Below are positions 16,201-49,874 of a DNA stretch of 64,000 nucleotides, piece after piece (position 1 is the stretch's first letter; each line of letters starts with the position of its first letter). Source of the stretch: Bacteroidales bacterium (GTDB lineage Bacteria; Bacteroidota; Bacteroidia; Bacteroidales; WCHB1-69); NCBI GenBank assembly GCA_017438945.1, contig JAFRUI010000013.1, positions 29,611-93,610 on the forward strand. Reading direction: 5' to 3'. Below the pieces are notes generated by a model. The model saw only the letters and a list, made by a program, of their open reading frames with translations, searched no databases and was not told the DNA's origin. A program made the position numbers and the translations under genes.

Positions 16201-19200
16201 CGAATGTTTACATAGGTACACCTACTATCCCCAACGGCTCAACAGTACCCGACGATCTCACCGCACTTGAAACCGGTCTTTGCGGAATGTCGGCGTGGAC
16301 AACCAAGACCTACACGTTGGACCACACCTATTCTGGTCTGCAGCGTCTCTATTTCTTCTGGAGCAACACGGGCTATTATGTCGCCAACCCGCCGGCCGCT
16401 ATCGACAACATCAACATTGAAGGCACCCCTTGCACTAACGTTCCTTCCGAACTGACCGCACAGGTGATGGATACGCTCGCCAATCTATTGTGGTCTATGC
16501 CCAACGGCAGTGCCGAATCCTACACTGTCGCTTACAAACTGCAATATGATACCGCCTTCACCTACATCACCGTACAGGACGAACATCTCACCATTGGCAA
16601 CCTCAGTCCGCTGACCACCTACGTTTGGAAAGTGCGGGCCAACTGTACTGCCACCGACCACAGCCAATGGTCTGCGGAATCCACCTTCCAGACCCCGGCG
16701 ATAACCGCCCGTCTTCCATACGTATGTGATTTCGAAGATGCGGATGAGAACAGCCGATGGACGTTCGTGAACGGGAGTTACGCCAACAAATGGCATATCG
16801 GAAACGCTGTGAACAACGGAGGTAACTCATCTTTGTATGTTTCCAATGACAATGGCGCCACCAACACCTACACGACCAACTATTCGATGATATGGGCTTA
16901 CCGCGATGTCTATCTGGATCCCAGCTATACCGATTATGTGATCTCATTCGACTGCAGAGCTTTCGGCGAGCTGTATAACAACAATCCTGTTGACTACGCG
17001 AAGGTATTCTTAGGACCTCCCACGACACCAACTGTCACACCCGTCAGCTCAAATATTATTGTCCCCGACGGTGCAACCCAGATGGGCGATGTCATCTATT
17101 TGGATTCCACCTGGCACAATGTCACCATCAATTTAGACACCGCCTTCACTGGTCTGCAGCGCATCTACATCCTGTGGCGCAGCGATGTGTCATGGGGTAC
17201 CAACCCGCCGGCAGCCTTCGACAACATCTCCATCACACCGGAGGGTTGCGGCATCCCACGCCATCTGACCGCCAACCAAGTGTCGGAGAACGATGCAGTG
17301 CTGTCGTGGACTGCGGTTTACCAAGCCAATTCCTACACGGTGGCTTACCGCCGACAATCCGACAACACCTATAGTTATGTGACCGCCAACAGCACTCAAG
17401 TCACACTGACCAACCTGCAACCCAAGACCAACTATATAGCCAAAGTCAGGACCAACTGCGACACTATGCAAGGCGTTTGGAGCAACGAGTTCCAGTTCAG
17501 CACGACCACACTGCCCTATTTCTGCGGCTTTGAGGAAGCGGATGAGAACGTTTGTTGGATTTTGGATGACGGCATGAACAACCACAAGTGGTACATCGGC
17601 CATGCGGTGCACTGTGATGGCGATTCCGCGTTGTATGTCTCCAACAACAATGGTGCTTCCAACACATTCTCCGACAACGTGAACGCCCAGACCTGGGCTT
17701 ATCGCGACATCTACTTCGATCCGCAATATTCCGAATATCTGATGGAATTCGACATCCGTTCATACGGTTATCCCGGAGCGTCTGTGGACTATGTGAGAGT
17801 GTTCCTCGGACCGCCGGCAACGCCTTCCGGCAGTTACACCCCCGCCAACGCAGAAGTCATCGGCGACTTCTATGGAATGACGAACTGGAACCATTACCGT
17901 TTCGTAATCGACGGATCCCATGCGGGCATGCAACGTCTATACTTCCTGTGGAGACAGCAGGTTGCAGGGACGAACAATCCACTTGCCGGTGCTGTGGATA
18001 ACATCTCCATCGTCGGTTCGCCATGCAGCATCCCGACGGAGCTCACCGTTTCCGACCTTGCCGATGTCACAGCAGTGGTTTCCTGGAGCCCCGGCGCATG
18101 CGGCATCACCAACGACTACACGGTCGGCTACCGGATGAGCAGCGATACAGGATGGTACGAGCTTTCCACCACCGACACGTTCCTCTTGCTGCAGAATTTG
18201 CAGTCCTCCACGCAATACACTTGGCGGGTGCGCAAAAGCTGCGTGCCGTCATTCGCCAGCCAGTGGAGCGATGTAAGCACTTTCTTCACGGAAGCCACCG
18301 AAGCGCAGCTGCCCTATTTCTGCGGCTTTGAAGAGAGTGACGAGAACCGCGACTGGCGTCTGCTGGGTGTGGGCGATAACCGCTGGTATATTGGGCAGGC
18401 CGCGCAACAAGCAGGCCAATACGCCCTTTATGTCTCCAACGATAACGGCGCGACCAACGCCTACGATGTCTATGGCTCAGCGAGCAACTCCTGGGCTTAT
18501 CGTGACATCTACTTCACCCCAGGATATGCTGAATACCAGATTGCCTTCGACTTCCGAGGGCTTGGGCAGAGCGGCGATGACCGCACCCGCATCTTCCTCG
18601 GACCTCCTGTCCCTGTGGAGCCCAATGCCACCTATTCCATCACTATCCCTTCCGAATTGGAGGAACTCGGCAACGGGCTTTACACAGATGCCGCATGGAC
18701 CAGCCATTCGTTCACGGTCGATTCCACGCACGCGGGACACCAGCGGCTCTACTTCCTCTGGAGCAACGGCTACTATGAAGGAACAAACCCGCCGGGCGCC
18801 GTCGATAACATCATGATTTACGGCGGTTCCTGCGCCGCACCTCACACGCTGACGGTGACCGCGACCTCCACGACCAGCATCAGCATCAGTTTCACCCCCG
18901 CCGACACCAGCGACCATAATTGGGAAGCCGTTATTGTGGAAGACGGGCAACCTATTGACACCACGCAGCTTATTGCGCTGACAAGTACCGCTTACACCTT
19001 CAACAATCTGCACAAAGACAGACTCTACACCATCTATGTGCGTACCGATTGCGGGAACAGCAAGAGCGCATGGTGCTCCACTTCCCAAAGGACGGACTGC
19101 GGCACCATCACCGATATTCCTTATGTGGAATCCTTTGACACCTACGGCACCGGTTCCAATCTGGATGGCTATTCCGCATTCCCGAGATGCTGGAGCCGCC

Positions 19201-21642: not shown

Positions 21643-22749
21643 ATGGAAAAGAGATACATTATCAGCGGCGGCGGCACCGGCGGGCACATATTCCCCGCGT
21701 TAGCCATCGCCAACAAGATCAAAGCGGAGAATCCCGAAGCCAAAATCCTCTTCATCGGGGCGAGTGACAAAATGGAGATGCGACGAGTGCCAGAAGCTGG
21801 CTATCCCATTGAAGGACTGGAGATTTACGGCATCCACCGCGACATGTCTCTCAGCGGTGTGATGTGCAATCTGCGCCTGCCCGTGGTGATGATGAAGGCC
21901 ATGCGCAAGGCCAAGAAGATCATGCGAGAGTTCAAGCCCGACCTGGCCATCGGCGTCGGCGGGTTCGCCAGCGGTCCCGCTCTGAAGGCCGCCTCACAGC
22001 TCGGAATCCCCACGCTTTTGCAAGAACAGAACTCCTATCCCGGCGTCACCAACAAGATGCTGGCCAAAAACGCCAAGGCCATCTGTGTGGCCTACGACGG
22101 CCTCGACCGCTTCTTCCCGCCCGAGAAAATCATCAAAACAGGCAATCCCATCCGCAAGGAAATCTTGCAATTAGTGCGCAAATCACCAGCGGCGTATGAA
22201 TATTTCAACTTCTCACCCGACAAGAAAACCGTGCTGGTAGTGGGCGGTAGTCTAGGCGCACGCACCTTCAACCAAACCATGGCCGCCAATCTGGACGCTT
22301 TCCGAAAAGCCGACCTGCAACTGCTTTGGCAAACCGGTGAACAGTTCTACAAGAACATTGACCCCGAACTGCTGAAACAGCAGGACGAACACATCCATAT
22401 TGTGCCGTTCATCAAGAACATGAACGACGCCTACAGCATGGCTGATGTCATCATCTCCCGCGCCGGCGCGTTGGCATTGGCGGAACTGGCCATCGTGGGA
22501 GCTCCAACCATCCTCGTGCCGTTCCCCTACGCCGCCGAAGACCACCAGACTTTCAACGCCAAGGCCCTATCCACCAAAGACGCCGCGCTCTTCATCCCTG
22601 ACAGCGAAGCCAAAGAGAAGCTGATTCCCACACTGTTACAATTGGTCAACGACCCGCACCGGATGGAAACCCTCGGCACAAACATCAAAACTTTCGCCCT
22701 GCCGAACGCCATCGACTTGATTTACGACGAAATCCTGAAATTATCTTAA
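21643..22749 (+). CDS. murG: UDP-N-acetylglucosamine--N-acetylmuramyl-(pentapeptide) pyrophosphoryl-undecaprenol GlcNAc transferase
   Basis: 368 aa. N-terminal ISGGGTGGHIFPALAIA G-loop. C-terminal SRAGALALAELAIVGAPTILVPFPYAAEDHQTFNA motif. Confidence 0.9.
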   Translation: MEKRYIISGGGTGGHIFPALAIANKIKAENPEAKILFIGASDKMEMRRVPEAGYPIEGLEIYGIHRDMSLSGVMCNLRLPVVMMKAMRKAKKIMREFKPDLAIGVGGFASGPALKAASQLGIPTLLQEQNSYPGVTNKMLAKNAKAICVAYDGLDRFFPPEKIIKTGNPIRKEILQLVRKSPAAYEYFNFSPDKKTVLVVGGSLGARTFNQTMAANLDAFRKADLQLLWQTGEQFYKNIDPELLKQQDEHIHIVPFIKNMNDAYSMADVIISRAGALALAELAIVGAPTILVPFPYAAEDHQTFNAKALSTKDAALFIPDSEAKEKLIPTLLQLVNDPHRMETLGTNIKTFALPNAIDLIYDEILKLS

Positions 22750-26087: not shown

Positions 26088-27017
26088 TTACGCAGGTTGT
26101 ATAAAAAAGTTACAACTTTCCATAATTTTTTTTGCAAAGGCCGTGTTAGCGAAGTGGCCAGGGCGGCTTGCGGTAATCTCCGCACACAACGGAACCCCCA
26201 GTAAATAAAGGTCTCCGATGAGGTCGAGCAGCTTGTGACGGGCCGGCTCATTGGGATGACGTAAATGCGTATTATTAAGAATATGATCCGGGGTCACGGT
26301 GATGTCTTTCATGTGGAAAAAGTCGCCGAGCTGGGTCAGCACCTTGCTGTCGGGCACTTTGTCAACGAATACGATGGCGTTGTCAAGGTCGCCGCCGCGC
26401 GCCAGGTTGTTCTGGATCAGGAACTGCAGCTCGTCAAGGAAGACAAAAGTGCGGCAGTTATAGACATCCGGAACGAAATTCTCCAAATTGTCAAGGACCG
26501 CCTCCTGCTCAGCCAAAACCTTCGTGCCGTAATCCACATGCACGGTCATTTTGAAGCGTTTCGCGGGCTTAATGGTGAGTTCTATCTGTTTCTCTGGGAT
26601 GGAGAACGTGATTTCCTCTTTCACAAATCCGATTTTTTTCGGGGAATCGAGCGTCACGATGCCGACCTCTTTGAGCATCTCCACATAAATGCGGGAGCTG
26701 CCGTCAAGAATGGGGGTTTCCGGACCGACGGTCTTCACAAGGACATTGTCGATGCCAAGTCCGGCGAGAGCGGCCATAAGATGCTCAATCGTGTGCACTT
26801 GCGCTTCGCCTTCTTTGATGGAAGTGCCACGGGAGGTGTCAAAAACCGAATTTGGGGTTGCCTTGACAATCGGGTTCCCAGGCAGGTCGGTGCGTTCAAA
26901 CTGGATTCCGAAATCGGCGGGTGCGGGCACAAAGGTGACCGTCACCTGTTGAGCCGTATGTAAACCTCTCCCCGATACGGAAACCGGAGAGGCGATGGTG
27001 GTTTGTAATGATGTCAT
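26088..27017 (-). CDS. lpxC: UDP-3-O-acyl-N-acetylglucosamine deacetylase, stand-alone (no FabZ domain)
   Basis: 309 aa. Motifs: GRGLHTAQQVTVTFVPAPADFGIQF, TIEHLMAALAGLGIDN, HKLLDLIGDLYLLG. It ends right after the LpxC fold (GHFANTAFAKKIM). Confidence 0.85.
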   Translation of the reverse strand: MTSLQTTIASPVSVSGRGLHTAQQVTVTFVPAPADFGIQFERTDLPGNPIVKATPNSVFDTSRGTSIKEGEAQVHTIEHLMAALAGLGIDNVLVKTVGPETPILDGSSRIYVEMLKEVGIVTLDSPKKIGFVKEEITFSIPEKQIELTIKPAKRFKMTVHVDYGTKVLAEQEAVLDNLENFVPDVYNCRTFVFLDELQFLIQNNLARGGDLDNAIVFVDKVPDSKVLTQLGDFFHMKDITVTPDHILNNTHLRHPNEPARHKLLDLIGDLYLLGVPLCAEITASRPGHFANTAFAKKIMESCNFFIQPA

Positions 27018-28207: not shown

Positions 28208-28294
28208 GGAGAGGTGGGTGAGTGGCTGAAACCACCAGTTTGCTAAACTGACGAAGGGGTAACTCTTCCGCGAGTTCGAATCTCGCTCTCTCCG
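28208..28294 (+). tRNA. tRNA-Ser (anticodon GCU)
   Basis: GGAGAGG acceptor stem paired with TCTCTCC. D arm is GGTG...CACC. Anticodon loop is TTGCTAA. A long variable arm (cgaaggggtaactcttccg) is typical of class II tRNAs. T arm is GCGAGTTCGAATCTCGC. Folded by hand; CCA is not encoded. Confidence 0.85.
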
Positions 28295-28370: not shown

Positions 28371-30296
28371 TTATTCGCTCAGTTCCAGCCATTCCATCTC
28401 TTTCGCTTCGATGTCGGCCTTGATTGATTCGTAAGCTTGGTACAGCTCGCCAGAGGCGATGGCTTCCGCGTTGCCTTCTGGATTGGCCAACCGCTCCTCG
28501 GTGTCAGCCAACAGACGCTGCAACAACTCCAACTCATCCTCCAGCTTGCGCAAACGGTTCTTCTTCTTCCTATCGTCGGCCTCCCGCTGCTTTTTCTGTT
28601 CCCACAACTCTTTGTTGCTGGACACCTTCTCGCCGGAAGCACTGGATGTGGTAACGTTCCGGTTTTGTAATTCGTTGAGCGTCTCCATCTTACGCTGCGC
28701 CAAGAAATCATAGACATCGCCGACGAAAGCATGCATCTGATGGTTCTTGAACTCATAGACCTTGGAAGTCAACCCTTGCAGGAAGTCACGGTCGTGGGAG
28801 ACGAGAATCAGACTGCCTTCGTACTGCAACAGGGCGTTTTTGAGCACATCCTTGGAAGGCATGTCTAGATGATTAGTCGGCTCGTCGAGAATAAGCAGAT
28901 TGAAGGGGGACAGCAACAGTTTCGCCAACGCGAGCCGCGCCTTTTCGCCTCCGGAAAGCACTTTCACTTTTTTTTCGGTATCTTCCGTGTCGAAAAGGAA
29001 ACTGCCGAGGATGGTGCGGATTTTGGGTCTTATATCGCCAACCGCCACATCGTCAATGGTCTCGAAAACCGTCTTTTCGGGGTTGAGCAGCTGCGCCTGG
29101 TTCTGTGCATAGTAACCTACAACCACTTGATAACCAAGCTGCAATTCACCGCTCTCGGAGGGCAGTGCACCTACGATGGCTTTCACCATAGTCGATTTGC
29201 CCTCTCCATTTCGACCCACGAATGCCACCCGTTCACCACGTTCCAAACGGAAATCCACCCCTTTGAGCACACCCGGTTTTGTATTATAACCCAAGCTGAG
29301 ATTCTTGCTCTCCACCACCACCAGTCCGGAATGCGGCGCAGGTGGGAATTTGAACGAAATGGAACTTTTGTCGTATTCGTCCACCTCCACACGATCCATC
29401 TTCTCCAACATCTTGATCCGGCTCTGCACCTGACGCGCTTTGGTGGCCTTATAGCGGAAGCGTTCGATAAACCGCTCGATCTGCGCGATTTCTTTTTGCT
29501 GGTTTTCATACGCGGACTGCTGGCTCTCAATGCGTTCAAGACGCTGTTCCACATATTTGGAGTAGCTGCACTTGTAATCCTGAATATTCCCCAACGTGAT
29601 CTCAATGGTACGGTTGGTCACACGGTCAAGGAAAGCGCGGTCGTGGGAGACCAGAATGACACATCCGTCATAATTGGCCAAGTAATCCTCCAGCCACTGG
29701 ATGGATTCGATGTCAAGATGGTTGGTGGGCTCGTCCAAAAGGATGATTTCGGGTTTTTGGAGGAGGATTTTGGCAAGACAGACACGCATCTGCCAGCCAT
29801 TGCTGAAAGAGGACATCGGTTGGTGGAACTCCTCACGCAAGAAACCCATACCAGCCAACACCTTCTCCGTTTCGGCCTCTATCATATTGCCACCAAGGTG
29901 GTTATATCTGTCGTTCAAGTCGGAAAGTTGCTGGGTCAGCTGGGCATACCCTTCAGATTCGTAATCCGTGCGTTCGGCCAGCTCGTTGGATATCTGCTGC
30001 ATTTTGCGCTCCATGATGCGAATTTCCTCAAACGCGGAGACCGTCTCGTCCCAAACGGAAAGTGTGGATGTTCCGGCGAGTTCCTGCGGCAAATACCCTA
30101 CCCTATGTCCAGAGGTGATGACCATCGTTCCCGACGCCGGCTCTATGTCCCGATGGATAATCTTCAACAACGTCGATTTCCCCGCACCATTATGCCCCAC
30201 AAGCCCGATACGGTCCTTGTCACCCGCCACAAACGAGATATCCTTGAACAGGAAATCTCCCGTGAAATTGACTGACAGTTTGTTGATTTGAATCAT
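28371..30296 (-). CDS. ABC-F family ATPase with two ABC domains and a C-terminal coiled-coil
   Basis: 641 aa. Two Walker A sites (GHNGAGKSTLLK, GRNGEGKSTMVK). Two signature motifs (FSNGWQMRV, LSGGEKARLALA). No TM segments. The C-terminus is K/E-rich. Confidence 0.9.
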   Translation of the reverse strand: MIQINKLSVNFTGDFLFKDISFVAGDKDRIGLVGHNGAGKSTLLKIIHRDIEPASGTMVITSGHRVGYLPQELAGTSTLSVWDETVSAFEEIRIMERKMQQISNELAERTDYESEGYAQLTQQLSDLNDRYNHLGGNMIEAETEKVLAGMGFLREEFHQPMSSFSNGWQMRVCLAKILLQKPEIILLDEPTNHLDIESIQWLEDYLANYDGCVILVSHDRAFLDRVTNRTIEITLGNIQDYKCSYSKYVEQRLERIESQQSAYENQQKEIAQIERFIERFRYKATKARQVQSRIKMLEKMDRVEVDEYDKSSISFKFPPAPHSGLVVVESKNLSLGYNTKPGVLKGVDFRLERGERVAFVGRNGEGKSTMVKAIVGALPSESGELQLGYQVVVGYYAQNQAQLLNPEKTVFETIDDVAVGDIRPKIRTILGSFLFDTEDTEKKVKVLSGGEKARLALAKLLLSPFNLLILDEPTNHLDMPSKDVLKNALLQYEGSLILVSHDRDFLQGLTSKVYEFKNHQMHAFVGDVYDFLAQRKMETLNELQNRNVTTSSASGEKVSSNKELWEQKKQREADDRKKKNRLRKLEDELELLQRLLADTEERLANPEGNAEAIASGELYQAYESIKADIEAKEMEWLELSE

Positions 30297-30350: not shown

Positions 30351-31514
30351 TCACCGTCTCAGCATCTCAAACGGATCCTCTTTCTGATTTTCAAGATAGG
30401 AGATTTTGCCGATGTTGAGCAGCATACCCATGGCACAGCCGGAGACAAACAGGGAGGCACCACCACTGCTGATGAACGGCAGGGTTTGTCCTGTGGTGGG
30501 CAACAGCTCGCAGTTCACCCCGATATGCACCAGTGCCTGACAGGTGAACCAGAATCCTATGCCGAAGGCCAGGATCCTCCCGAATGTGCCTGTCGCCTCT
30601 TTGGCGATTTTCCGCGCTCGATAAAAGATGATCAGATAGGACAGGAGCACCAACACGCCGACCACGATGCCGGTTTCTTCAAACAATGACGCAAAAGCAT
30701 AGTCTGTTTCTTTCTCGGGCAGACGGTTTTTGATAACCCCCTTTCCTGGACCGGCAGGGTTGAAGCCAGAGCGTGCTATGGCAGACCTTGCCAGAATCAT
30801 CTGGTCTCCATATCCGTCACTGTTGTCTTTGGTGATGTAATATTCCCACCTGTTGATAAATGTCGCCATACGGCCTATTTTCGCCTTCTTGTCATCACTC
30901 AGGTTGGCCACTATGATCACAGCCACCAGAAGGATCGCGGACACGATTCCGATCATGCCGGCAATATCCTTCAGCTTGAAGCCTCCCACAAAGAAAATAA
31001 CCATTCCTGTTATGAATAGAATAATGGCAGTGGACATGTTCATGGTGGCGATGCCGACACAGAAGCCACCCAACAAGAGGAAGAGGAACCGGACATTGGC
31101 GCTGGTCAGTTCCCCATGGTTATGATACTGCCGTGCAATATAGTTGGATATGTAGAAGATTATCAGGAAGCCGATAAAGTAGAACGTCTGCACATCTCGC
31201 CCGAAAATGGTGACACCGCGCACCGCCTGTGACAACATGGTGAGGATCAACAGCCCAGCGGCAACAAAGAGGAAAACGGGGGCGAAAACGCCCAGTTTGC
31301 GATAATCGAACTGATACACAACAAACATCCCGACATATCCGAACAACAGATGCTTCAGGTGCTGGAGCACAATGTTGCCACGCATACTATAAACCATGAC
31401 AATGGATATAGCCGTCAGAAATATCACCACTATGGGGATGATATTGTCCGTTTTCAGCTTAATTCTGTGCAACAGAGGCACTCTAGGGGCGTCAATGTTA
31501 GTCTCCATGACCAT
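30351..31514 (-). CDS. ftsW: FtsW/RodA/SpoVE-family (SEDS) cell-division protein
   Basis: 387 aa, polytopic. C-terminal SEDS motifs (DYAFASLFEETG, TGQTLPFISSGGASL). Occupies the dcw-cluster position. Confidence 0.85.
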   Translation of the reverse strand: MVMETNIDAPRVPLLHRIKLKTDNIIPIVVIFLTAISIVMVYSMRGNIVLQHLKHLLFGYVGMFVVYQFDYRKLGVFAPVFLFVAAGLLILTMLSQAVRGVTIFGRDVQTFYFIGFLIIFYISNYIARQYHNHGELTSANVRFLFLLLGGFCVGIATMNMSTAIILFITGMVIFFVGGFKLKDIAGMIGIVSAILLVAVIIVANLSDDKKAKIGRMATFINRWEYYITKDNSDGYGDQMILARSAIARSGFNPAGPGKGVIKNRLPEKETDYAFASLFEETGIVVGVLVLLSYLIIFYRARKIAKEATGTFGRILAFGIGFWFTCQALVHIGVNCELLPTTGQTLPFISSGGASLFVSGCAMGMLLNIGKISYLENQKEDPFEMLRR

Positions 31515-31520: not shown

Positions 31521-32078
31521 TTATAGTTGTGCGACAGCCGCCTTGAATTTGTCCCCACGCTCACGGTATGTAAGCTGGCCATTTCCATGAATTCCAGGAG
31601 CATACAACACCAAATCACCCTTTTGACAAGCATAAAAAGCGTGATTGACGGCATCTTCCATGCTCATGGTCATCATTACGGGGACACCCATCTCGGACAG
31701 CCTTTGGTAAACGTCAATATTATACACTCCTTGCAAAACGACCTCCTTCACCTTTGATTTCACCTCTGACAAGACATCCTCCGTAAGGGCGTCAAGAGAG
31801 TCGATATTGGTGATCCAAACGGTGGGCTTGGTCATGGACTGCAGCGAATACCACACCGCATTGGCCGTCGTGGAACGCGCGTCATCCACAAAGTCAACGC
31901 CCGAGAAGCTTTTGACATGTTCCAGCTTATGGGCATTTCCCTCGAAATCAGCAAGAGATTCGGCAATGTTCCGTTGACGTAATTTGATAAGTTGTTCAGA
32001 AAGTGTGCCAACACGTGGATTGGCGGTCTCGCGCGCTTGCTCAAACAAGCGGAAGCTGTTGGTTTTTTTAGTCGGCAT
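31521..32078 (-). CDS. MurD C-terminal-domain-only protein (185 aa), a remnant or stand-alone Mur-ligase C-domain
   Basis: Aligns by eye only to the last ~170 aa of MurD: LADFEGNAHKLEHV matches F.GL.HR.E.V, and GVDFVDDARSTTANA matches G..NDSKATN. It ends ERGDKFKAAVAQL. No Rossmann N-domain and no GxxGKT/S P-loop. Only 93 nt separate it from the mraY stop. Confidence 0.6.
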   Translation of the reverse strand: MPTKKTNSFRLFEQARETANPRVGTLSEQLIKLRQRNIAESLADFEGNAHKLEHVKSFSGVDFVDDARSTTANAVWYSLQSMTKPTVWITNIDSLDALTEDVLSEVKSKVKEVVLQGVYNIDVYQRLSEMGVPVMMTMSMEDAVNHAFYACQKGDLVLYAPGIHGNGQLTYRERGDKFKAAVAQL

Positions 32079-32171
32079 AATGGTTTTGGTTTATTATTCT
32101 ACTTACTTTTATTTATCCAATTATCATATTATCTAATCATCGTTTCATCGTTTCATCGTCTCATCCTCCAA
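32079..32171. repeat. AT-rich spacer ending in a TCATCGT-word array, at the place where the murD 5' two-thirds should be
   Basis: ...aatcatcgtttcatcgtttcatcgtctcatcctcc (32136-32170). The same word family occurs at 39446-39486. Confidence 0.8.
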
Positions 32172-33434
32172 CTACCTGACTTTCAAAGTCACTATAGCCA
32201 AGACTGCGAGAATCATGCTGACCACTATGAATCGTTGTACAATTTTCGATTCATGAAGGCCTTTTTTCTGGAAATGGTGGTGCAGTGGTGCCATCAAGAA
32301 GATCCGGCGCCCTTCGCCATACCGTTTCTTAGTGTATTTGAAATAGGACACCTGCATGATTACCGATATGGACTGGGCCAAATAGACACCGCAAAGAATA
32401 GGGATGAGGAGTTCTTTGCGGATGATGATGCATGACACCGCCACAATGCCGCCTAAGGTAAGGCTTCCGGTGTCACCCATGAATACCTGAGCGGGATAAC
32501 AGTTCCACCAATAAAACCCGATACAGGCGCCAATCACGGCAGAAATGAAAATCACCAACTCCCCTATATTCGGGATATACATGATATTCAAATAGTTGGC
32601 AAATATCACGTTACCCGAGACATACGCCAGGATAGCTATACCGACCGCGATGGAGGCGGTCGTCCCTGTCGCTAACCCATCCAGTCCGTCAGTGAGGTTC
32701 GCCCCGTTGGAGACGGCGGCTATGATGAACACAATGATCGGGATGAAAAGCAGAAATGACCATCTTCCACTCTTGTCTCCCATCCAGCGGGTGAGTGCTG
32801 AATAGTCCAACTCGTGATTCTTCACAAAAGGAATCGTGGTCTTAGAGGAGTGATGGGGTTCATCAAACAGTTTGGGCGTGTTGGCTTTCTCCTGATTCTC
32901 CACCTGCAACAGCTCGTTGGGGCTCACCTGTGTCAACGATTGTTTCTGCACTTTCTTCTCGCTAATCATCGCATCGGGATGGAAATACATGGTTGCACCC
33001 ACTAATAGGCCAAGGATAATCTGCCCGATCAGTTTTTTTCTCGGGGAGAGCCCATCTTTGTTCTTCTTGAACACCTTGATATAGTCGTCGGCAAAACCTA
33101 ATATTCCTAACCATATCGTGGTGAAAATCATCAGGATAATGTAAATATTGGTGAGATTACAAAGCAGCAGCACAGGAATGAGGATAGCCGCGATGATGAT
33201 CAGTCCACCCATGGTCGGGGTTCCCGCTTTCTCGCTTTGGCCCGCAAGCCCCAAATCGCGCACGCTTTCACCTATCTGTTTCTTTTTCAAAAATTGAATG
33301 AAGTATTTTCCTATGAAAACAGATATGAACAATGCCAACACAAAAGCCATTGCGGAACGGAACGAGATGTACTGGAAAATCCGAGTCCCGTGATAGCCGC
33401 TTTCATGAAGCCAAGAAAACAGATGATACAACAT
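32172..33434 (-). CDS. mraY: Phospho-N-acetylmuramoyl-pentapeptide transferase
   Basis: 420 aa, polytopic. Motifs: [31 protein letters not shown]. Confidence 0.9.
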
Positions 33435-33445: not shown

Positions 33446-34918
33446 TTATTTGATGTTGAAAAAATTCTTTATTTCCTCCGTGTCGTCAAAATGATGTTTG
33501 ACGTGGTTGATTTCCTGATAGTTCTCATGACCTTTCCCCGCAACCAACAGAACGCCGTCGGATGGCAGCATCATGCAAGCCGTCTTGATGGCTTCATGAC
33601 GGTTTTCGATGACCAGCACATGCTTCGCTTTGCTTGCAGGAACCCCTTTCTGCATATCATCCAGGATAGCCATGGGGTCTTCGGTGCGCGGGTTGTCGGA
33701 GGTCAGCAGCACCTTGGAACTGTACTTGCAGGCAATCTCCGCCATTTCGGGCCGCTTCAGCGCGTCACGGTCACCGCCACAGCCCACCACCGTAATCACC
33801 TCGGCCTCCTTGCCCACAATGTCGCGGATGGTTTTCAGCACGTTCTCGAGCGCATCCGGCGTGTGTGCGTAATCGACAATGGCAGTGCCTCCATTTTCAG
33901 AATGCAGCATCTGAAAACGCCCTGCCGCACTCTCCAACATACTCATCCGCGCGAGCGCGTCATACTCGTCCATCCCCAACAACACAGCGGCTCCATAAAT
34001 GGCCAATAAGTTGTATGCATTGAATTTCCCGCACAAGCGGAAAAAGACTTCGCGATTGTTGATGCGCATGTGCAAACCCGAAAAGGCATTCTCCATCACG
34101 ACCCCCTTGAAATCGGCTGCGGTGCGCAAACTGTAAGTATGAATGGCTGCTTTCGTGTTCTGCACCATCACACGCCCGTTCTTGTCATCCACGTTGGTGA
34201 GTGCAAAAGCGGATTTCGAGAGTTTGTCGAAAAAGGACTTTTTCGCGGCAATATAATTGGCAAACGTCTTGTGGAAGTCCAAATGGTCATGGGTGATGTT
34301 GCTGAAGATAGCTCCGGCAAAGCGCAGTCCGGACACACGATGTTGGCAAAGTGCGTGCGAACTCACCTCCATAAAGCAGTATTCGCAATGACGGTCCACC
34401 ATTTGCGCGAGCAACTGGTTGAGTTCCACAGCGTCGGGAGTGGTGTGCGTGGACGGGATCTCCTCATCCCCGACTTTATTCACTATCGTGGAGAGCAGAC
34501 CTGTCTGGTGACCGGCAGACATGAACAAACGGTGCAAAAGCGTCACTGTCGTGGTCTTGCCGTTGGTACCGGTAATGCCGACCAGTTTCAGCTTGCGGCT
34601 CGGATGGTCGTAATACGCATCCGCCAATTGCCCCAACGCCACAGAGCTGTCCGCCACCTTGATGTAGCAAACCTCCTTGTCCAAAGTCTCCGGCAGTGTT
34701 TCACAAACCACCGCACGACACCCTTGAGCAATCGCCGCAGCAATGTACTTGTGCCCATCGGTTTGTGTACCACGTTGTGCCACATAAAGTTGCGAACATC
34801 CTTTCGGCTGTGTCGCCACGCGCCGCGAATCAAACAGGATCTCCGTGATTTCAATCCCCGGATTTCCCGTCAGCTCACAGCTACGCAGCGCTTTCAACAA
34901 TATATCTAATGGTTTCAT
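33446..34918 (-). CDS. murE: UDP-N-acetylmuramoyl-L-alanyl-D-glutamate--2,6-diaminopimelate ligase
   Basis: 490 aa. GITGTNGKTT P-loop. DYAHTPDALENVL. The C-terminal DNPR motif (LTSDNPRTEDP) indicates DAP specificity. Confidence 0.9.
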   Translation of the reverse strand: MKPLDILLKALRSCELTGNPGIEITEILFDSRRVATQPKGCSQLYVAQRGTQTDGHKYIAAAIAQGCRAVVCETLPETLDKEVCYIKVADSSVALGQLADAYYDHPSRKLKLVGITGTNGKTTTVTLLHRLFMSAGHQTGLLSTIVNKVGDEEIPSTHTTPDAVELNQLLAQMVDRHCEYCFMEVSSHALCQHRVSGLRFAGAIFSNITHDHLDFHKTFANYIAAKKSFFDKLSKSAFALTNVDDKNGRVMVQNTKAAIHTYSLRTAADFKGVVMENAFSGLHMRINNREVFFRLCGKFNAYNLLAIYGAAVLLGMDEYDALARMSMLESAAGRFQMLHSENGGTAIVDYAHTPDALENVLKTIRDIVGKEAEVITVVGCGGDRDALKRPEMAEIACKYSSKVLLTSDNPRTEDPMAILDDMQKGVPASKAKHVLVIENRHEAIKTACMMLPSDGVLLVAGKGHENYQEINHVKHHFDDTEEIKNFFNIK

Positions 34919-34928
34919 TGTCTTTTTT

Positions 34929-35022
34929 AATGGTTATGGGTTATAGGTTATGGGTTATTGAAGCGGGGTTATAGGTTAAGAGGTTATAGAGGTTAGGAGG
35001 TTAGAAGGTTATGGTTTATTCC
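34929..35022 (-). repeat. GGTTATG/GGTTAKR-word element, copy E3 plus extension, 10 nt upstream of the murE start
   Basis: aatggttatgggttataggttatgggttattgaagc, followed by ggggttataggttaagaggttatagaggttaggaggttagaaggttatggtttatt. Confidence 0.9.
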
Positions 35023-35050
35023 TTGACATCCCGGCAGGGATGAAAGCTCG

Positions 35051-35076
35051 GTAGAGGCGTATCGCATACGCCCGAC
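35051..35076 (-). terminator. GTAG-family hairpin directly after the ftsI stop (possible attenuator or processing site inside the dcw operon)
   Basis: GTAGAGGCGTATcgcATACGCCCGAC forms a 7-bp GGCGTAT/ATACGCC core plus imperfect outer pairs. A second small hairpin, CATCCCggcaGGGATG, lies at 35026-35041. Confidence 0.45.
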
Positions 35077-35078
35077 AT

Positions 35079-37340
35079 TCACGGGTCCAGGTACAATTTC
35101 ACCGTATGCGTTTTGTCATCGTAAACCTGTGTTTTGACGCGGCCTTTACCGATGATTCGTGGGTTATAGCCAGCCCGAATCAACTCCGTGACGGCATCCG
35201 CCGCCATCATGCCACGCACATCCGGCATTTTCTGATAGGTATTTGCCTGTAAAGCCGTCACCGTCACATGTTTGTTCGTATCAGCGGCATCCACTCTCAG
35301 ATAAGGGGCGGCAGTCTCGTAGCTGACCGTGTCGTAACCCAACCCTTTCAACAAAGTGTTGAAATACTTTTTGCGGATGGGTGCGGTACGCGCCAACGGG
35401 GTGAATGGATAATCCTCCACTCTGCGTGTCGCGCTGTAATTGGAGCTGTTCATAATGCTGCGCGCGATACGTGCGAATGCATCCGCCGCCACGGTACTAT
35501 GTTGCGGGACCCCGTAGATATAGACGATGACGGTGTATTGCGGCTTGTCCATCGGGAAATAGCCGCAGAAAGAGACCGCGTTTATGTCTTTCCGGTAATT
35601 ACCGATGCTCTCGTCCCAGATGTCACGGGTTCCCGTCTTGCCGGCGAACATGCAGTTCTCATCGCGGAACCGGTAGGCCGTGCCGTGCTCGCCCCACACC
35701 ACCTGTTCCAAATATTTCCGGGCTTTCATTATCGTGGTATCAGAGGCGATTTTTTCAATAAGAACCTGAGGTTCAAAACGTTGTATAGTATCGTACGTAT
35801 CAGTGACGTACCGCACGAACAGCGGAGCCATCATCTTTCCGCCATTGGCAACAGCGTTATAATACACCAGCGTGCGGATAATCGGGATATTGAATCCCGC
35901 ACCGAAACAAGTGGCGTAATAGGTGTTGAAATCGTTGGTGCCATCCTTGATTCGGGCGGGCATGATGTCCCCCAGCTGGCTGTGGATGGTATCCAGCAAT
36001 CCGAATTTCTTCAGCTGCTCAAGATATTTCGGGAACCCTCTTCTCCCGTAGGTCGTGAAAATCATCTCGGCGATACCGACGTTGGAAGAACGCTTGAAAA
36101 CCTCAATGGGAGGAACGTCAATAGGGTTATACTTGTGATCGCACTTGTAATACCGCTTAATCTGTCCCGACTTTGTGGGAAATTCGAATGTATGGTTGTA
36201 AATGGGATACACTTTGCTGGTGTCATCGTCATTTTTCTCCAGATAAGCCAGCAAAGAGGCCAATTTGAAGGTGGAGCCGGGTTCAACCTTGGCATCGAGG
36301 GCATATTCCATACTTTCCGTATAGTAAGAGGCGTCAGCGGCGGCGCGACGAAGATTGGATATGGCCTTGATCTCACCCGTCTTGGTCTCCATCACGATGG
36401 CGCATCCCCATTCGGCATTCAGTTCCGAAAGCTTCCGCGAGAGTTCATTATGCACCGCGTGTTGGATCTCCAACTTGATGGTTGTGTGTATGTTGTGACC
36501 ATCCTCCGGATCCATACGCTCGCGCAGCGGCACTTTGGCGTGGTTCAGCTCAAGGTATTTTTTACTCCCGTCCACACCGGCCAAAATGTCGTTCATGGCA
36601 TGTTCCAGCCCGAACTGCCGGTCCGGCATCTCCACCCCCAACGTCCGCTTCGCCATCTCACCATAAGGGTTGATGCGCACACTGGCGGGCACATAGTTGA
36701 AATGGGTGTTGACAATCCTTCTCCGAATGGAATCCCCCTCGCTGTTGACGACAGTTCTATATAAATATGGACGGTTCTTGATGAATGCCGTGTCCACACC
36801 CATCACCCACATCTTCTCATCCCATTCTTTCACAGGGAAAAGCGTGGCATATTTCTTCTTTTGGATATTTTTCGTGAAAAAGTCGTAATAGTAGTCCGCA
36901 CTGTATCTCGGGAAACGGTCTTTGAACTGGTAGTAGAAATCATCGGACAACTTGCGGAAAATCTCATCAAAAGCTTTCGGGTTCTTCTGCAGGGTGTCGG
37001 CGTATTCGCGTGCAAAGCCCTTGCCGTCGAACGCCACCTCGAAAACAGTGAAGTTGGCCACCAGCACACGGCCATGGTCATCGTATATCTCCCCGCGGAC
37101 AGGCCGTAGCATATTCTCGCGGACAAAGCAGTAGGTGTCATCCGTGACCTTATCCTCCCATCCTGGTACGGTGGTGTCCACGCATTTGTCAGACGTGCCC
37201 GACGCCACGGCGCGCTCCACGATGGAAAGGTACAGGATTTTGGCCAGGCAAGCCACACCCACCAACACCATCAGCAGGTATACGACAGTCATCCTTCTCA
37301 AAGTGGAAGGGGAAGGCTCCTGTTTGCTACTTGTTCTCAT
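35079..37340 (-). CDS. ftsI: Class B penicillin-binding protein (FtsI/PBP3-type transpeptidase) with a C-terminal PASTA domain
   Basis: 753 aa. N-terminal TM anchor. STFK active-site motif (EPGSTFKLASLLAYL). SSN (KRSSNVG). KTGT (AGKTGTRD). PASTA-like C-terminus (MPDVRGMMAADAVTELIRAGYNPRIIGKGRV). Confidence 0.85.
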   Translation of the reverse strand: MRTSSKQEPSPSTLRRMTVVYLLMVLVGVACLAKILYLSIVERAVASGTSDKCVDTTVPGWEDKVTDDTYCFVRENMLRPVRGEIYDDHGRVLVANFTVFEVAFDGKGFAREYADTLQKNPKAFDEIFRKLSDDFYYQFKDRFPRYSADYYYDFFTKNIQKKKYATLFPVKEWDEKMWVMGVDTAFIKNRPYLYRTVVNSEGDSIRRRIVNTHFNYVPASVRINPYGEMAKRTLGVEMPDRQFGLEHAMNDILAGVDGSKKYLELNHAKVPLRERMDPEDGHNIHTTIKLEIQHAVHNELSRKLSELNAEWGCAIVMETKTGEIKAISNLRRAAADASYYTESMEYALDAKVEPGSTFKLASLLAYLEKNDDDTSKVYPIYNHTFEFPTKSGQIKRYYKCDHKYNPIDVPPIEVFKRSSNVGIAEMIFTTYGRRGFPKYLEQLKKFGLLDTIHSQLGDIMPARIKDGTNDFNTYYATCFGAGFNIPIIRTLVYYNAVANGGKMMAPLFVRYVTDTYDTIQRFEPQVLIEKIASDTTIMKARKYLEQVVWGEHGTAYRFRDENCMFAGKTGTRDIWDESIGNYRKDINAVSFCGYFPMDKPQYTVIVYIYGVPQHSTVAADAFARIARSIMNSSNYSATRRVEDYPFTPLARTAPIRKKYFNTLLKGLGYDTVSYETAAPYLRVDAADTNKHVTVTALQANTYQKMPDVRGMMAADAVTELIRAGYNPRIIGKGRVKTQVYDDKTHTVKLYLDP

Positions 37341-37746
37341 GTTTCCGCTCCTTTCTCTTGAACCAACGGCGTTTCTCCACCGGTTTCGGGGTCGCTTTCA
37401 CCGTAAAGCACTGTTTTTCATCGGTGATATATCCTTTTTCCTGCATCTTTTGGATAAGGATTTTGTTTTTCTCGTATGGAATGAACTGGTTGTTCGCTTT
37501 CAGTCGGCTGATTTCAGCCTTGTAGGTGTTTTCCAGTTCCATGATTTTTTTCTCTTTGATATGGATGCGCTGCTCGCTGACAACCAGCACGGTGACCAGA
37601 ACAAGCAAAAAGAAAACATAGAAATACCACGGCCTCATCTTCTTTTTCACCAATATTTCACCACCGAAAATATTGGAGAAGAACTCGCCAAAACGGGTCT
37701 TTTCCGGCTTTTGATTGGGGTTGATATTTCTAGAGGTGGTTTCCAT
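37327..37746 (-). CDS. ftsL: FtsL-like small bitopic division protein
   Basis: 139 aa. Single TM helix (WYFYVFFLLVLVTVLVV) followed by a short coiled-coil. Located between rsmH and ftsI, overlapping both. Confidence 0.65.
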   Translation of the reverse strand: METTSRNINPNQKPEKTRFGEFFSNIFGGEILVKKKMRPWYFYVFFLLVLVTVLVVSEQRIHIKEKKIMELENTYKAEISRLKANNQFIPYEKNKILIQKMQEKGYITDEKQCFTVKATPKPVEKRRWFKRKERKHENK

Positions 37747-38653
37747 GATTGACAGGTTTTATTTTCTCGGCAACACGCAACTTGGCGCTACGGGCGCGAG
37801 GGTTAGAGTTAATTTCTTCATCATCAGGCTGTATCGCCTTTCTTGTCAGCAGTTTGAACGGGGTCAGCGGATTGCCGAAAAAATCCTTCTCCACCTCTCC
37901 GTCCAGTTTCCCGGCGCGCATGAAATTCTTCACCATGCGATCTTCCAAAGAATGGTAGGAGATGACCACGAGACGACCTCCGACCTTCAGGGCATCAACC
38001 GTTTGTTCCAAAAAGGATTCCAGCACCGACATCTCTTGGTTCACCTCGATGCGGACCGCTTGGAAAATCTTGGACAGCGTCTTGTTCTCCTTGCCGCGCA
38101 GCAAAGAGGGTTTCAGAGCCGCAACCAACTGGTGGGTGGTGGTGATGGGCTGTTCCTCGCGAGCCTTGACGATACGGTGGGCCAAAGCTCGTCCGTCGGG
38201 GAGCTCCCCGTAACGGTAGAAAATGTCACTCAGAGCTTTCTCATCATATTGATTGACAACATCTTGTGCTGATTTCCCCGATTGGGTGTTCATCCGCATG
38301 TCCAAAATTCCATCCTCGCGGTAGGAGAAGCCGCGCTCCGGCGTGTCGAACTGATGGGAAGAGACCCCAAGGTCGGCCAAAATACCGTCCACGGGATAAG
38401 CCTTATGGTACTGCAAAAAACGGGTGAGGTTTTTGAAATTCGATGCCACAAAGGAAAACCGTTCATCATCAACAAGTTGCGATTGGGCGTCGACATCTTG
38501 GTCAAAAGCGACGAGACGTCCGGCAGTCAGTTTCTCTAGAATAGCACGGGAATGCCCGCCGCCACCGTAGGTGACATCGACATAAATCCCATCAGGATTT
38601 GTAACCAGATAATTGACAGAAAGTTGAAGGAGAACAGGGTTATGATATTCCAT
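37730..38653 (-). CDS. rsmH: 16S rRNA (cytosine1402-N4)-methyltransferase
   Basis: 307 aa. Motifs: HNPVLL, DVTYGGGGHS, DLGVSSHQFD, SYHSLEDRMVKNF. Confidence 0.9.
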   Translation of the reverse strand: MEYHNPVLLQLSVNYLVTNPDGIYVDVTYGGGGHSRAILEKLTAGRLVAFDQDVDAQSQLVDDERFSFVASNFKNLTRFLQYHKAYPVDGILADLGVSSHQFDTPERGFSYREDGILDMRMNTQSGKSAQDVVNQYDEKALSDIFYRYGELPDGRALAHRIVKAREEQPITTTHQLVAALKPSLLRGKENKTLSKIFQAVRIEVNQEMSVLESFLEQTVDALKVGGRLVVISYHSLEDRMVKNFMRAGKLDGEVEKDFFGNPLTPFKLLTRKAIQPDDEEINSNPRARSAKLRVAEKIKPVNHGNHL

Positions 38654-39122
38654 TGGGTCCCTCCTTCTCCGGCAAATAGTGACCGAGGTGCATCTCCTCG
38701 TTGAGTTTTTCCAAATCCTCAGGACTCATATCAAACTTCTCGTGATACTTCCGGCTATTCCACATCTCGATCTGACCGTTATCCAGCACCATCACCAGCT
38801 CCTTGTCAATGGCATACATCTCCATCAGCGGTTTCGGGATGACGATGCGGTGCTGCGCGTCACATTCCAACATGGCCGTGTTACGCAGGAAAGCATTCCG
38901 ATACAATTTCACACGGGTAAGGTTCCGATCCAGAGAGTTCATATAGTCCATCTGCTTGCGATAAGCCTTTTCCGACCACAGCATGATATACTCGCCGAAG
39001 CCGTGCGTAACATAGAACGTGCTGCGTTCATCCTCTGACAACGCACGAAGAAGAGCCGTGGGCAGCTTCAGCCGTCCGCTCTTCTCTATTGAGACTTCCC
39101 AATATCCGTATTCCGTTGTCAT
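38640..39122 (-). CDS. mraZ: Transcriptional regulator MraZ
   Basis: Two SpoVT/AbrB-like halves (GRLKLPTALLRAL and HRIVIPKPLMEMYAI). First gene of the dcw run. Start trimmed to ATG 39122, downstream of the -7 box at 39151. Confidence 0.85.
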   Translation of the reverse strand: MTTEYGYWEVSIEKSGRLKLPTALLRALSEDERSTFYVTHGFGEYIMLWSEKAYRKQMDYMNSLDRNLTRVKLYRNAFLRNTAMLECDAQHRIVIPKPLMEMYAIDKELVMVLDNGQIEMWNSRKYHEKFDMSPEDLEKLNEEMHLGHYLPEKEGPNGIS

Positions 39123-39150
39123 AACTTTTTCTATGTTAATTTTCGAGCGA

Positions 39151-39158
39151 CAAAAATA
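39151..39158 (-). promoter_or_regulatory. -7 promoter box (TATTTTTG on the minus strand) for the mraZ/dcw operon
   Basis: Plus strand reads caaaaata. It lies 29 nt upstream of ATG 39122. Confidence 0.55.
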
Positions 39159-39415
39159 TAATTTTTCCATAACATATTTCCATAAATCGCATCTTATTTA
39201 ACTCATGTTGTTAAAAAAACACCTTATCTTACTGATTTTCAATATGGAAAATATTGGAAAAAAGTTATCAACAGAAATCAACAGCAATATCAAAGAATTG
39301 ATACACAGTAATTTAAATCAATCTGTTAAGAAAACTGTTATCTTGTTTATTATCAGCTAGATAAAAATCTAATTGGAATTTTTAGGAATTTACATCTTGC
39401 GAACGGAAGAAATAT

Positions 39416-48900: not shown

Positions 48901-49824
48901 CCCGTGATCACCACCACCTACAACGAAGGCGACGTGATTGAAGCCGGAATCTTCGGCAGATATACCACGTACCAAGGAATGGTGGAAATGGTGCCCACCC
49001 ACAATGCCAATGAAGCCACCGGAACGCCCGTCACCGTCACACCTGCGAATGCCACCATCACCGATATTAAGGCACAATATACGGATGTTTATGAGTCCAA
49101 ATTGGTACACTTAAGCGATGTGGAATTCATCAGCGCCACCCAATTTGTGCAGAACGGCGACACAATGGCCATCTACAACCGCTTCAACACCGTCACCACG
49201 GAGATTTCCGCCGGCGACATGGCTGATGTGACCGGCTTTGTCAGCTACTCCACCAACTACGGTTACCAGATTTATCCTCGTGGCGATGAGGATATTGACA
49301 TCCACCCCGTAGTGATTATGGACACCGTTGCCACGCCCGAATTTGACCTGTTCAAGGATGGCGAGTTCTATAGAGTGAATATCACCTGCGCCACAGAAGG
49401 TGCCAGCATTTACTACACTATCGATGGCACCGACCCTGACGAATCCTCCAACTTGTTTGACGGCATTTTCCCGTTGAACATGCAACCTCGCATCCTGAAG
49501 GCCATCGCTATGAAAGAGGGTATGGTGAACAGCGCCATTGCCGTTTACGATTACAATCCGAGCGGCATCAACAGCTATGAGTTGCGCGATAACCTCAGCG
49601 TTTACCCCAATCCCGCCATCAACAATGTGGCCATCAGTGTGAAGAATGACAATGTCACGATCGAGAAAGTGGAACTTTACAACATTTATGGTCAACTGCT
49701 GAATACGATGTATGTGAACGGAAACACGACAGAAGTTTCTGTCCAAGCATTCGCCACGGGCACCTATCTCGCCAAGGTTTACACCGACAAGGGCGTTGTT
49801 ACGATGCCGGTAATCAAGAAATAA
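45913..49824 (+). CDS. T9SS type A cargo protein (1303 aa) with repeated chitobiase/hexosaminidase-C-like (Fn3-associated) domains
   Basis: Signal peptide. At least five copies of the P.F.P..G.Y......V.I......A.I(Y/R)YTTDG(S/T)(T/E)PT..S..Y..P motif. C-terminus is YPNPAINNVAI...GTYLAKVYTDKGVVTMPVIKK. Confidence 0.8.
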   Translation: MKKNSTILSKAALLLCCLMSLVGLTFAQTTYSFSNYPAGEQYAENEVHVLDDDMTLVTNQCHFTTQLRVYSSSSHDGYFYSYALPLYIDSIAFNMGYKVDNVNIYGSVDGDNWNLVGTIAVTSTSYSDYGLSFGSSNYNFFKFDVAGSQQIRLASMTMYYKSTGPSGQTAQIPTFSPAAGLYTSPISVTIATETANASIYYTTDGSTPTTSSTLYTAPFPINQTTTVKAIATADGYANSSVATATYSFPEVLANLAAFKTLPNSNQPYIIGNDVTFVFGNGAYTYVKDASAGLLLYGNNGIVNDFSEGDQIANLMGTKTTYQNQVEMTVSAYESSSAANVGTNTPITLTISELKNNYSTYDAQLVKIENVTFPDGFTGGNSTIITQGDDSLTMYKRFSIDTTIAAGSTLNITGFAAIYGSTIQLYPRNNQDFTIQLPTVETPVFTPVAGSYADSVTFSITCATEGAEIRYTTDSTEPTENSALYSAPVTLTSSATVMAKAFKTNWLPSETSTAVYTVVYEPVLSVNPSVLSFNSTQLTQTFTVSGAYLTDPVTLTSSDSHFTVSPSSISNPNSTTEVTVTFDGTEPATGTVAVVSGSLSEQVALNATARLSAPTLTPVTETSDDAITVTMSCTVADATIHYTTDGTEPTENSAVYSQPIVFSTPGTYTVKALATKAGWEASEVSTGNYTINQPASNDTVIYSVGFEDEEGFTASNVYNNTTVEFTGAEGAQWGTFYGTPSTNNHIAGAQSMQMRWYTSATENIGYTYTNFDLHNVTHVTFAAASTNGLNVKVSHSIDGGNTYSAGQVFTLGSTAQVFNYVVDEEGSYNFVRLKFAIELPETDPTSTSRVVIDSLVAFGIPGVVPSTVATPVISPNNGFYYEPQTVSITCSDADAVIRYTTDGTEPTENSTLYSQPFTVSATTTISAKAWKANMTPSFTATSTISFPAQVANIAAFKAAASNDPQQIMSDVTFVFRSGRYMFVEDNTAAMLIYDNSTPVITTTYNEGDVIEAGIFGRYTTYQGMVEMVPTHNANEATGTPVTVTPANATITDIKAQYTDVYESKLVHLSDVEFISATQFVQNGDTMAIYNRFNTVTTEISAGDMADVTGFVSYSTNYGYQIYPRGDEDIDIHPVVIMDTVATPEFDLFKDGEFYRVNITCATEGASIYYTIDGTDPDESSNLFDGIFPLNMQPRILKAIAMKEGMVNSAIAVYDYNPSGINSYELRDNLSVYPNPAINNVAISVKNDNVTIEKVELYNIYGQLLNTMYVNGNTTEVSVQAFATGTYLAKVYTDKGVVTMPVIKK

Positions 49825-49844: not shown

Positions 49845-49874
49845 TGTAGAGACGCGCCATGGCGCGTCTCTACA
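49845..49874. terminator. Perfect 30-nt palindrome between convergent genes; bidirectional terminator candidate (GTAG-family)
   Basis: TGTAGAGACGCGCCATGGCGCGTCTCTACA. The stop codon of the minus-strand 1770-aa gene (49870-49872) lies inside the right arm. Confidence 0.7.

Follow-up and report, generated by a model that had tools for sequence, protein, structure and literature searches.

The 64,000-nucleotide (nt) stretch of a Bacteroidales bacterium genome analysed here (GenBank assembly GCA_017438945.1, contig JAFRUI010000013.1, positions 29,611 to 93,610; hereafter the window) carries a 185-amino-acid (aa) open reading frame (ORF) between mraY and ftsW. Comparative sequence analysis identifies this short gene as a functional, stand-alone gene under selection, derived from domain 3 of MurD and from the final helix and hinge of its central domain. 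We consider it somewhat probable that its product, a descendant of MurD, has no catalytic role and serves the MraY/FtsW precursor machinery as an accessory module, and that the true MurD is encoded elsewhere. The gene order in the window is mraZ-rsmH-ftsL-ftsI-murE-mraY-[185-aa ORF]-ftsW.

The NCBIfam model TIGR01087 (murD) matches the short ORF with E=1.4e-25, and ORF residues 25-183 align to model positions 281-440 of 441. The score of 90.3 bits lies below the curated cut-off of 211.95 bits, and the ORF does not qualify as a MurD equivalog. MurD chains in the PDB align to it over their residues ~292-441 (E=6e-8). As judged from these alignments, the likeness to MurD is far above chance and confined to its C-terminal part. 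In the AlphaFold2 model, core residues 51-185 have predicted local distance difference test (pLDDT) values of 85-94. A Foldseek search of this model against the PDB returned MurD domain 3 for all of the best 30 matches, with probability 1.00 and template modelling (TM) scores of ~0.60-0.66, and the superposition on MurD gave a root-mean-square deviation of 2.5-4 Å over ~145 columns. According to the model, the short ORF folds as Mur ligase domain 3. The C-domain assignment proposed in the initial annotation is thus borne out by TIGR01087 and by the fold, while the Pfam model Mur_ligase_C (PF02875) gives just 20.2 bits (E=0.0011), below its gathering threshold of 28.4 bits.

The core keeps motifs of the fold core and motifs specific to Bacteroidota, namely W76, L79, M82, KVK, G117, P161, R174-G175 and F178. 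Residues ~25-50 correspond by homology to the final helix and the hinge of the MurD central domain, as the start of the TIGR01087 match indicates, while residues 1-24 carry a family-specific motif, MPTxKTNxFxLFE. Within the N-terminal arm, L30, R34 and F45 are conserved across the family of window ORF homologues (the window family). The peptides LADFEGNAHKLEHV, GVDFVDDARSTTANA and ERGDKF, on which the initial annotation had based its alignment to the last central-domain helix and the C-terminal domain, are all found in the ORF. It had also reported that the UDP-binding and P-loop domains are missing, and no N-terminal or central MurD domain was found in the ORF, in the spacer upstream of it or in the six-frame translation of the window. 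On this evidence the short ORF lacks the three-domain architecture of MurD (UDP-binding, ATP-binding with P-loop, C-terminal). The layout described earlier, with the ORF in the mraY-ftsW slot, a 6-nt gap to ftsW and a 93-nt spacer containing an array of TCATCGT words, was likewise recovered, the array being 3.75 tandem copies of an 8-nt word. This spacer is not conserved among relatives, which have their own simple repeats or gaps of just 2-30 nt. Upstream of position 10001, the L011 spacer carries the tandem word repeat TTGACnATTGAC and the L012 spacer carries AAACCTTAAACC. A conserved regulatory element in the spacer was rejected, the repeat being a species-specific simple repeat. Sigma-70 and terminator scans gave nothing usable, the sigma-70 model not covering Bacteroidota promoters.

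The short gene is neither rare nor confined to one assembly. The exact 185-aa protein is recorded in 146 blocks of the assembly collection, and gene order is identical in all four contigs listed for it (80-486 kb). A homology search with the short ORF returned at least 149 proteins, nearly all of 181-187 aa and 44-94% identical, from ruminant, gut and termite-gut Bacteroidota metagenome-assembled genomes (MAGs). In a scan of one genome per species, the short gene was present in 14 species (L011-L024), giving at least 14 GTDB species. The other matches were canonical MurDs of 443-470 aa whose C-domain is 29-38% identical to the window ORF, the sole exception being one gene cut by a contig end. 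The length split between the two groups is clean. The reading frame is unbroken in every species, and both the N and C termini are conserved. Relatives do not carry a full-length murD at this position; they share the short gene.

Throughout the short-gene loci the order is rsmH-ftsI-murE-mraY-short gene, and at each locus examined the short gene has mraY as its immediate upstream neighbour. Because the short gene directly follows mraY everywhere, co-transcription of the two is suggested. Usually ftsW comes next and the cluster then ends; murG, murC and ftsQAZ never follow ftsW in this clade, whereas they are kept there in canonical Bacteroidota. In three divergent lineages (L019-L021) the short gene is no longer beside ftsW and still abuts mraY. 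In the termite-gut loci L020 (10646-15814) and L021 (6124-7224), genes for a restriction-modification methylase and for RmuC or YhcG-type nucleases lie between the short gene and ftsW, and in L019 a symporter gene comes after the short gene. Insertion of mobile or defence genes is tolerated at this junction.

Ratios of nonsynonymous to synonymous substitution (dN/dS, Nei-Gojobori) are 0.03-0.10 for the short gene, 0.03-0.05 for mraY, 0.04-0.10 for murE and 0.05-0.14 for ftsW, with synonymous sites close to saturation in many pairs. In a tree of MurE and MraY, the carriers of the short gene form a deep monophyletic clade; identity among their MurE proteins is 63-100%, and with the canonical lineages sampled it does not exceed 57%. 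Judged from these comparisons, the short gene is old, and purifying selection acts on it as strongly as on mraY and murE. The suggestion in the initial annotation of a very recent deletion is refuted by the depth of the clade, in which MurE identity falls to 63% and that of the short protein to 44%, and by the strong purifying selection; orthologous short ORFs under such selection, for which it had asked, exist in the 14 species. A decaying pseudogene remnant or an assembly artefact would fit a gene far shorter than expected that stays below the Pfam threshold. This explanation is almost certainly wrong, being contradicted by the number of homologues, their spread over species, the recurrence of one arrangement across assemblies, the low dN/dS, and the intact frames, conserved termini and uniform length of 181-187 aa.

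Next to the retained fold stand changes at positions that are invariant in canonical MurD (Table 1). Arg302, a hinge-loop residue of MurD, binds ADP at its alpha-phosphate (PMC4816537).

Table 1. Conservation of MurD positions in 26 canonical Bacteroidota MurDs, 114 members of the window family and 57 members of the 182-aa class, aligned on a common profile. Residue numbers are those of E. coli MurD; the E. coli sequence used is identical to the PDB chains.
Position	Canonical MurD	Window family	182-aa class
H267, N268	26/26	lost (N268 kept in just 3/114)	lost
N271	26/26	59/114	4/57
R302	26/26	K in 106/114	kept in 47/57
D317	26/26	114/114	57/57
K319	26/26	R in 100/114	K in 29, R in 18 (of 57)
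T321	26/26	94/114	mostly S or C, T in 14/57
G344-G345	26/26	N-[I/M]	kept
K348	26/26	V/P/I	8/57
S415	26/26	55/114	53/57
D417	26/26	G	42/57

The roles of the other positions, whether invariant or contacting D-glutamate (D-Glu), follow the structural and mutagenesis literature on MurD. Among the Mur-superfamily invariants that lie in the retained segment (N268, N271, R302 and D317), D317 alone is fully kept by the window family. The set of D-Glu contacts (T321, K348, S415, F/Y422 and the GGxDKGN loop) is not preserved as a set, and five residues are deleted from the loop equivalent to S415-F422 (the D-Glu loop) in some members. The window family retains H301 (108/114), E304, Y422 (110/114), R425, G426 and F429, and has gained invariants of its own: Y119 (replacing D372), Y149, Q116 and a C-terminal VAQL. 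The K to R exchange in the SKAT motif and the altered C-terminal loop, noticed earlier in the window ORF alone, are real and family-wide. Measured against one canonical reference, the C-part is 68% identical in canonical MurDs, 46% in the 182-aa class and 37% in the window family. The C-part of the window family has, as these values indicate, undergone accelerated divergence and is now tightly constrained.

Two further groups of short MurD-like proteins were found in other Bacteroidota. A profile search of 1.84 billion representative proteins returned the window family and many Met-initiated proteins of 181-182 aa, and a second homology search found at least 202 proteins of this 182-aa class. 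They lie in complete division and cell wall (dcw) clusters, mraZ...murE-mraY-[182 aa]-ftsW-murG-murC-ftsQ-ftsA-ftsZ, without a full murD, and their carriers include the NCBI MAGs GCA_045639025.1 and Bacteroidetes bacterium 4572_112 (OYT10636.1). Short MurD-C genes also occur in GCA_017549765.1, in the RUG182 assembly ONCM01, in UBA1176 DBYW01 and in the assembly to which ERZ1042105 scaffold_3 belongs. The 182-aa class has lost H267/N268 and K348 and retains most of the other motifs. Proteins of 182 aa with wholly intact motifs were left out of the class statistics and rejected as members; they cluster with full-length members and are probably truncated gene calls. Also set aside as uninformative were intermediates of 250-400 aa from the representative search, these being fragments at contig edges, variants with internal deletions, or run-through fusions with intact motifs. 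The full-length top matches to the short-family profile (P0137, P0138 and others) proved to be ordinary canonical MurDs, unlinked to the clade.

The second group occurs in a clade of Flavobacteriales MAGs (L075, L089, L098-L101, L114 and L167), in which a degenerate MurD-C-like gene of 164-170 aa stands between a full-length murD upstream (447-451 aa) and ftsW downstream. For this gene at least 426 relatives are found in databases, and its dN/dS of 0.13-0.32, similar to the adjoining murD, indicates purifying selection. In a tree of C-domains the window family is monophyletic (98% bootstrap) and stands beside 182-aa-class sequences, and its nearest neighbour, P0125, is likewise without an adjacent murD. 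The Flavobacteriales family is separate and monophyletic (100% bootstrap) and does not group with the MurDs of its own genomes. These data bear on the origin of the short ORF, which could be an older stand-alone paralogue of the Flavobacteriales kind, the whole murD having later been lost or moved from the cluster; the functional consequences would be the same. The order murD, short gene, ftsW that such a history needs does exist in Flavobacteriales, and the short ORF of L075 scores 88 bits on the 182-aa-class profile vs 64 bits on the canonical MurD profile. The history is nevertheless unlikely: the Flavobacteriales family joins neither the window family nor the 182-aa class in the tree, the closest outgroup of the window family also lacks an adjacent murD, and the 182-aa class has its start precisely on column 263 of the canonical MurD profile, with canonical-like sequence there. 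This exact start favours deletion of the 5' part in place.

If the short protein is an accessory module, D-Glu must be ligated by a MurD encoded elsewhere. The sequence inspected amounts to ~20 kb per related genome and 64 kb for the window. A hidden Markov model of the canonical N-terminal and central domains, run against the six-frame window and L001-L024, L091 and L092, matched MurE and MurC only; in the window and the 24 loci L001-L024 the matches were to MurE alone. No additional Mur ligase came up when other large ORFs of the window were scanned against Pfam. No full-length MurD was found in the window, nor within 10 kb of the short gene in ~20 species. A scan of JGI metagenomes with a profile of the MurD N-part gave full-length murD inside dcw clusters in 80 of 80 loci and no orphan copies, in a sample biased to query-like sequences.

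The last two results weigh against a non-catalytic module accompanied by a distant MurD, and so do several features of the short protein. D317 (114/114), H301 (108/114), T321 (94/114) and R425-G426 are still conserved at ligand-contact positions; K319R and R302K are conservative, and some ligand binding or even catalysis in trans may persist. Retention of the central-domain helices would likewise be expected of a fragment that complements a split enzyme.

Most of these points would equally fit a split MurD, in which the N-terminal and central domains come from a separate gene elsewhere and the 185-aa protein is a C-terminal subunit acting in trans. Docking through the retained central-domain helices would complete the active site, possibly with altered amino-acid recognition. 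Such an arrangement agrees with the conservation just listed (and that of F429), with the retention of the last central-domain helix and hinge along with domain 3, with the low confidence of the predicted arm helices, as expected of a segment that needs a partner, and with the lack of a full-length murD near any locus. It also agrees with the intact murE, mraY and murG, which imply that D-Glu addition is needed. We regard a split enzyme, the main rival of the accessory module, as improbable all the same. H267/N268, the GG344-345/K348 loop and D417, all invariant in the 26 canonical proteins, are gone, only half of the family keeps S415, the D-Glu loop is short by 5 residues in some members, and the C-part is about twice as far from canonical MurD as catalytic C-domains are (37% vs 68% identity). 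A similar free domain stands beside a complete MurD in Flavobacteriales, and a murD gene consisting of the N-part only was found in no fetched locus and in none of the 80 JGI loci.

In a further alternative, MurD-type N-terminal and central domains are both missing from the genomes altogether; another enzyme or a salvage route would add D-Glu, and the short protein would assist or be unrelated. A catalytic part of MurD was indeed found nowhere in the sequence inspected of these genomes (the window and the related loci), and the label MurD given to the short proteins in IMG might mask a true absence in automated pathway reconstruction. We judge this to be very unlikely. The absence covers only the limited stretches given above, murE, which depends on the product of MurD, is under strong purifying selection, and we know of no D-Glu-adding enzyme other than MurD-type ligases. 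Taken more broadly, it is conceivable, if on the doubtful side, that whole clades, both the rumen and termite-gut clade of the window and the 182-aa-class lineages, are without a complete MurD, that a two-piece or different enzyme adds D-Glu, and that the label MurD has hidden this.

We return to the non-catalytic module, which draws on four lines of evidence. Canonical invariant residues are lost or replaced; divergence was accelerated and is now tightly constrained; a free domain coexists with complete MurD in Flavobacteriales, a precedent for an accessory role; and natural MurD-FtsW fusions (PMC10214165) point to a link at the same gene junction. The short protein would no longer be a D-Glu-adding ligase and would act as a scaffold or regulator, possibly a ligand sensor, on or near the MraY/FtsW step. 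Its altered cleft might still bind a ligand, H301, E304, D317 and R425-G426 being kept and K319R and R302K conserved in their new state. The N-terminal helices, which are poorly self-packed, would probably dock onto a partner (MraY, FtsW or a Mur ligase) in the membrane-proximal precursor or divisome machinery, and D-Glu ligation would be done by a complete MurD encoded elsewhere in the genome. The retained non-catalytic module that the initial annotation had offered as one option is thereby the better supported of its two (fold kept, invariants lost, coexistence in Flavobacteriales), with a split enzyme retaining some probability.

A comparison with known systems places the short protein close to domain 3 of MurD (TIGR01087; EC 6.3.2.9), with which it shares homology, fold and the operon slot between mraY and ftsW, as well as the Bacteroidota motifs NxxW[FY]AL[QE]SM, KVKxIV and RGxxF. 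Unlike MurD, it has no UDP- and ATP-binding domains, and residues invariant in canonical MurD are lost or changed in it. Among the fold matches are also chains Q of PDB entries 8r6s and 8ras, plant MurE-like proteins from the plastid-encoded RNA polymerase complex, which we take to be the MurE-like PAP11 subunit. There a protein derived from a Mur ligase serves as a structural subunit instead of a ligase, a precedent for putting the fold to non-catalytic use; that protein differs in being eukaryotic, full-length with three domains, derived from MurE and part of an unrelated complex, and its sequence relation holds only at the superfamily level. MurT of the MurT-GatD lipid II amidotransferase (PDB 6h5e, 6gs2) is alike in that its C-terminal domain is the docking surface for the partner enzyme. 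In contrast, MurT keeps the ATP-binding central domain, is catalytic, belongs to Firmicutes and Actinobacteria and is a distant fold match (E ~3e-4). Natural MurD-FtsW chimeras suggest a functional or regulatory link between the MurD C-terminus and FtsW (PMC10214165). The same gene junction is conserved at the short-gene locus, but the chimeras contain full-length MurD and occur in Proteobacteria and Actinobacteria, while here the domain is free and unfused.

The coordinates of the short ORF, its parts and its neighbours are collected in Table 2. The dcw cluster of the window stops after ftsW, and the next gene encodes an ABC-F ATPase (28371-30296, -). The murG gene lies ~9 kb away from the cluster on the opposite strand, beside ybaK-like and radical-SAM genes. 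No murC, ftsQ, ftsA or ftsZ was found in the window or in any related locus of the clade. FtsW of the clade is 26-33% identical to a canonical Bacteroidota reference, against 31-50% for other Bacteroidota and the same reference, and the corresponding values for FtsI are 27-31% and 34-56%; by these identities FtsW and FtsI of the clade are unusually divergent, while MurE and MraY are not.

Table 2. Features of the window and of related loci. Positions are in window coordinates unless a related locus is named.
Feature	Locus	Position	Strand	Remarks
Stand-alone MurD C-terminal-domain ORF, 185 aa	window	31521..32078	-	intact, ATG start; stop codon counted in
Core with MurD domain-3 fold, residues 51-185	window	31521..31928	-	AlphaFold2, Foldseek, retained motifs
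N-terminal helical arm, residues 1-50	window	31929..32078	-	helices predicted at pLDDT ~44-53
mraY/short-ORF spacer, 93 nt, AT-rich	window	32079..32171	.	read from sequence
Tandem 8-nt repeat TCATCGTT, ~3.75 copies	window	32137-32166		inside spacer
ftsW	window	30351..31514	-	PF01098 E=1e-41; 6 nt downstream of short ORF
mraY	window	32172..33434	-	TIGR00445 E=8e-97; adjoins short ORF on upstream side
murE	window	33446-34918	-	upstream dcw part (33446..39170)
ftsI	window	35079-37340	-	upstream dcw part
ftsL-like	window	37327-37746	-	upstream dcw part
rsmH	window	37730-38653	-	upstream dcw part
mraZ	window	38640-39170	-	upstream dcw part
murG	window	21643..22749	+	50% identity to canonical MurG; Glyco_transf_28 domains
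182-aa-class gene	L091	10001-10546		
182-aa-class gene	L093-L095	10001-10549		
182-aa-class gene	L096-L097	10001-10549		
182-aa-class gene	L182	2951-3499		
Flavobacteriales short gene	L075	10501-11088		195 aa
Flavobacteriales short gene	L089	10521-11015		
Flavobacteriales short gene	L098	10001-10495		
Flavobacteriales short gene	L100	10001-10513		
Flavobacteriales short gene	L114	7328-7801		
Flavobacteriales short gene	L167	3844-4353		

Elsewhere in the window, LpxC is a separate 309-aa protein (26088-27017, -) with the FabZ domain neither fused nor adjacent; Bacteroidota usually have an LpxC-FabZ fusion. A single tRNA gene at 28208-28294 (+), between the ABC-F gene and lpxD, is the sole Rfam match. 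Very large ORFs (908 to 3717 aa) are densely set at 2465-5191, 5221-10209, 10284-21437, 45913-49824, 49870-55182 and 57674-59272. A Pfam scan of those at 2465-5191, 10284-21437 and 57674-59272 found fibronectin type III (fn3) or BspA-type leucine-rich repeat domains together with a C-terminal sorting domain of type IX secretion. Two paralogous-looking ORFs near the window ends, at 1080-2207 (-) and 59914-61110 (+), each pair a DNA-binding domain of the LytTR type with a winged-helix or TrmB-like helix-turn-helix at the C-terminus.

Together, the short proteins form a widespread family of MurD-derived stand-alone domains; our literature searches found no published description of a stand-alone MurD C-domain family, and no dedicated NCBIfam model exists for the 182-aa class. 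Their names differ between annotation systems: IMG calls them 'UDP-N-acetylmuramoylalanine--D-glutamate ligase' (MurD), while NCBI/PGAP uses 'cyanophycin synthetase', 'glutamate ligase domain-containing protein' or 'hypothetical protein' (P0002, P0317, P0334, P0342, P0387 and others). This inconsistency across IMG and PGAP is a systematic problem, so that pathway reconstructions for many Bacteroidota MAGs of rumen, gut or sediment origin may be mistaken at the MurD step. The enzyme MurD, essential and nearly universal, serves as an antibiotic target, and murD is among the most stable members of the dcw cluster. A strongly conserved free C-domain with an altered active-site face in its place points either to an unrecognised non-catalytic role of domain 3 at the MraY/FtsW step, as the Flavobacteriales paralogue beside an intact murD suggests, or to a non-canonical way of D-Glu ligation.

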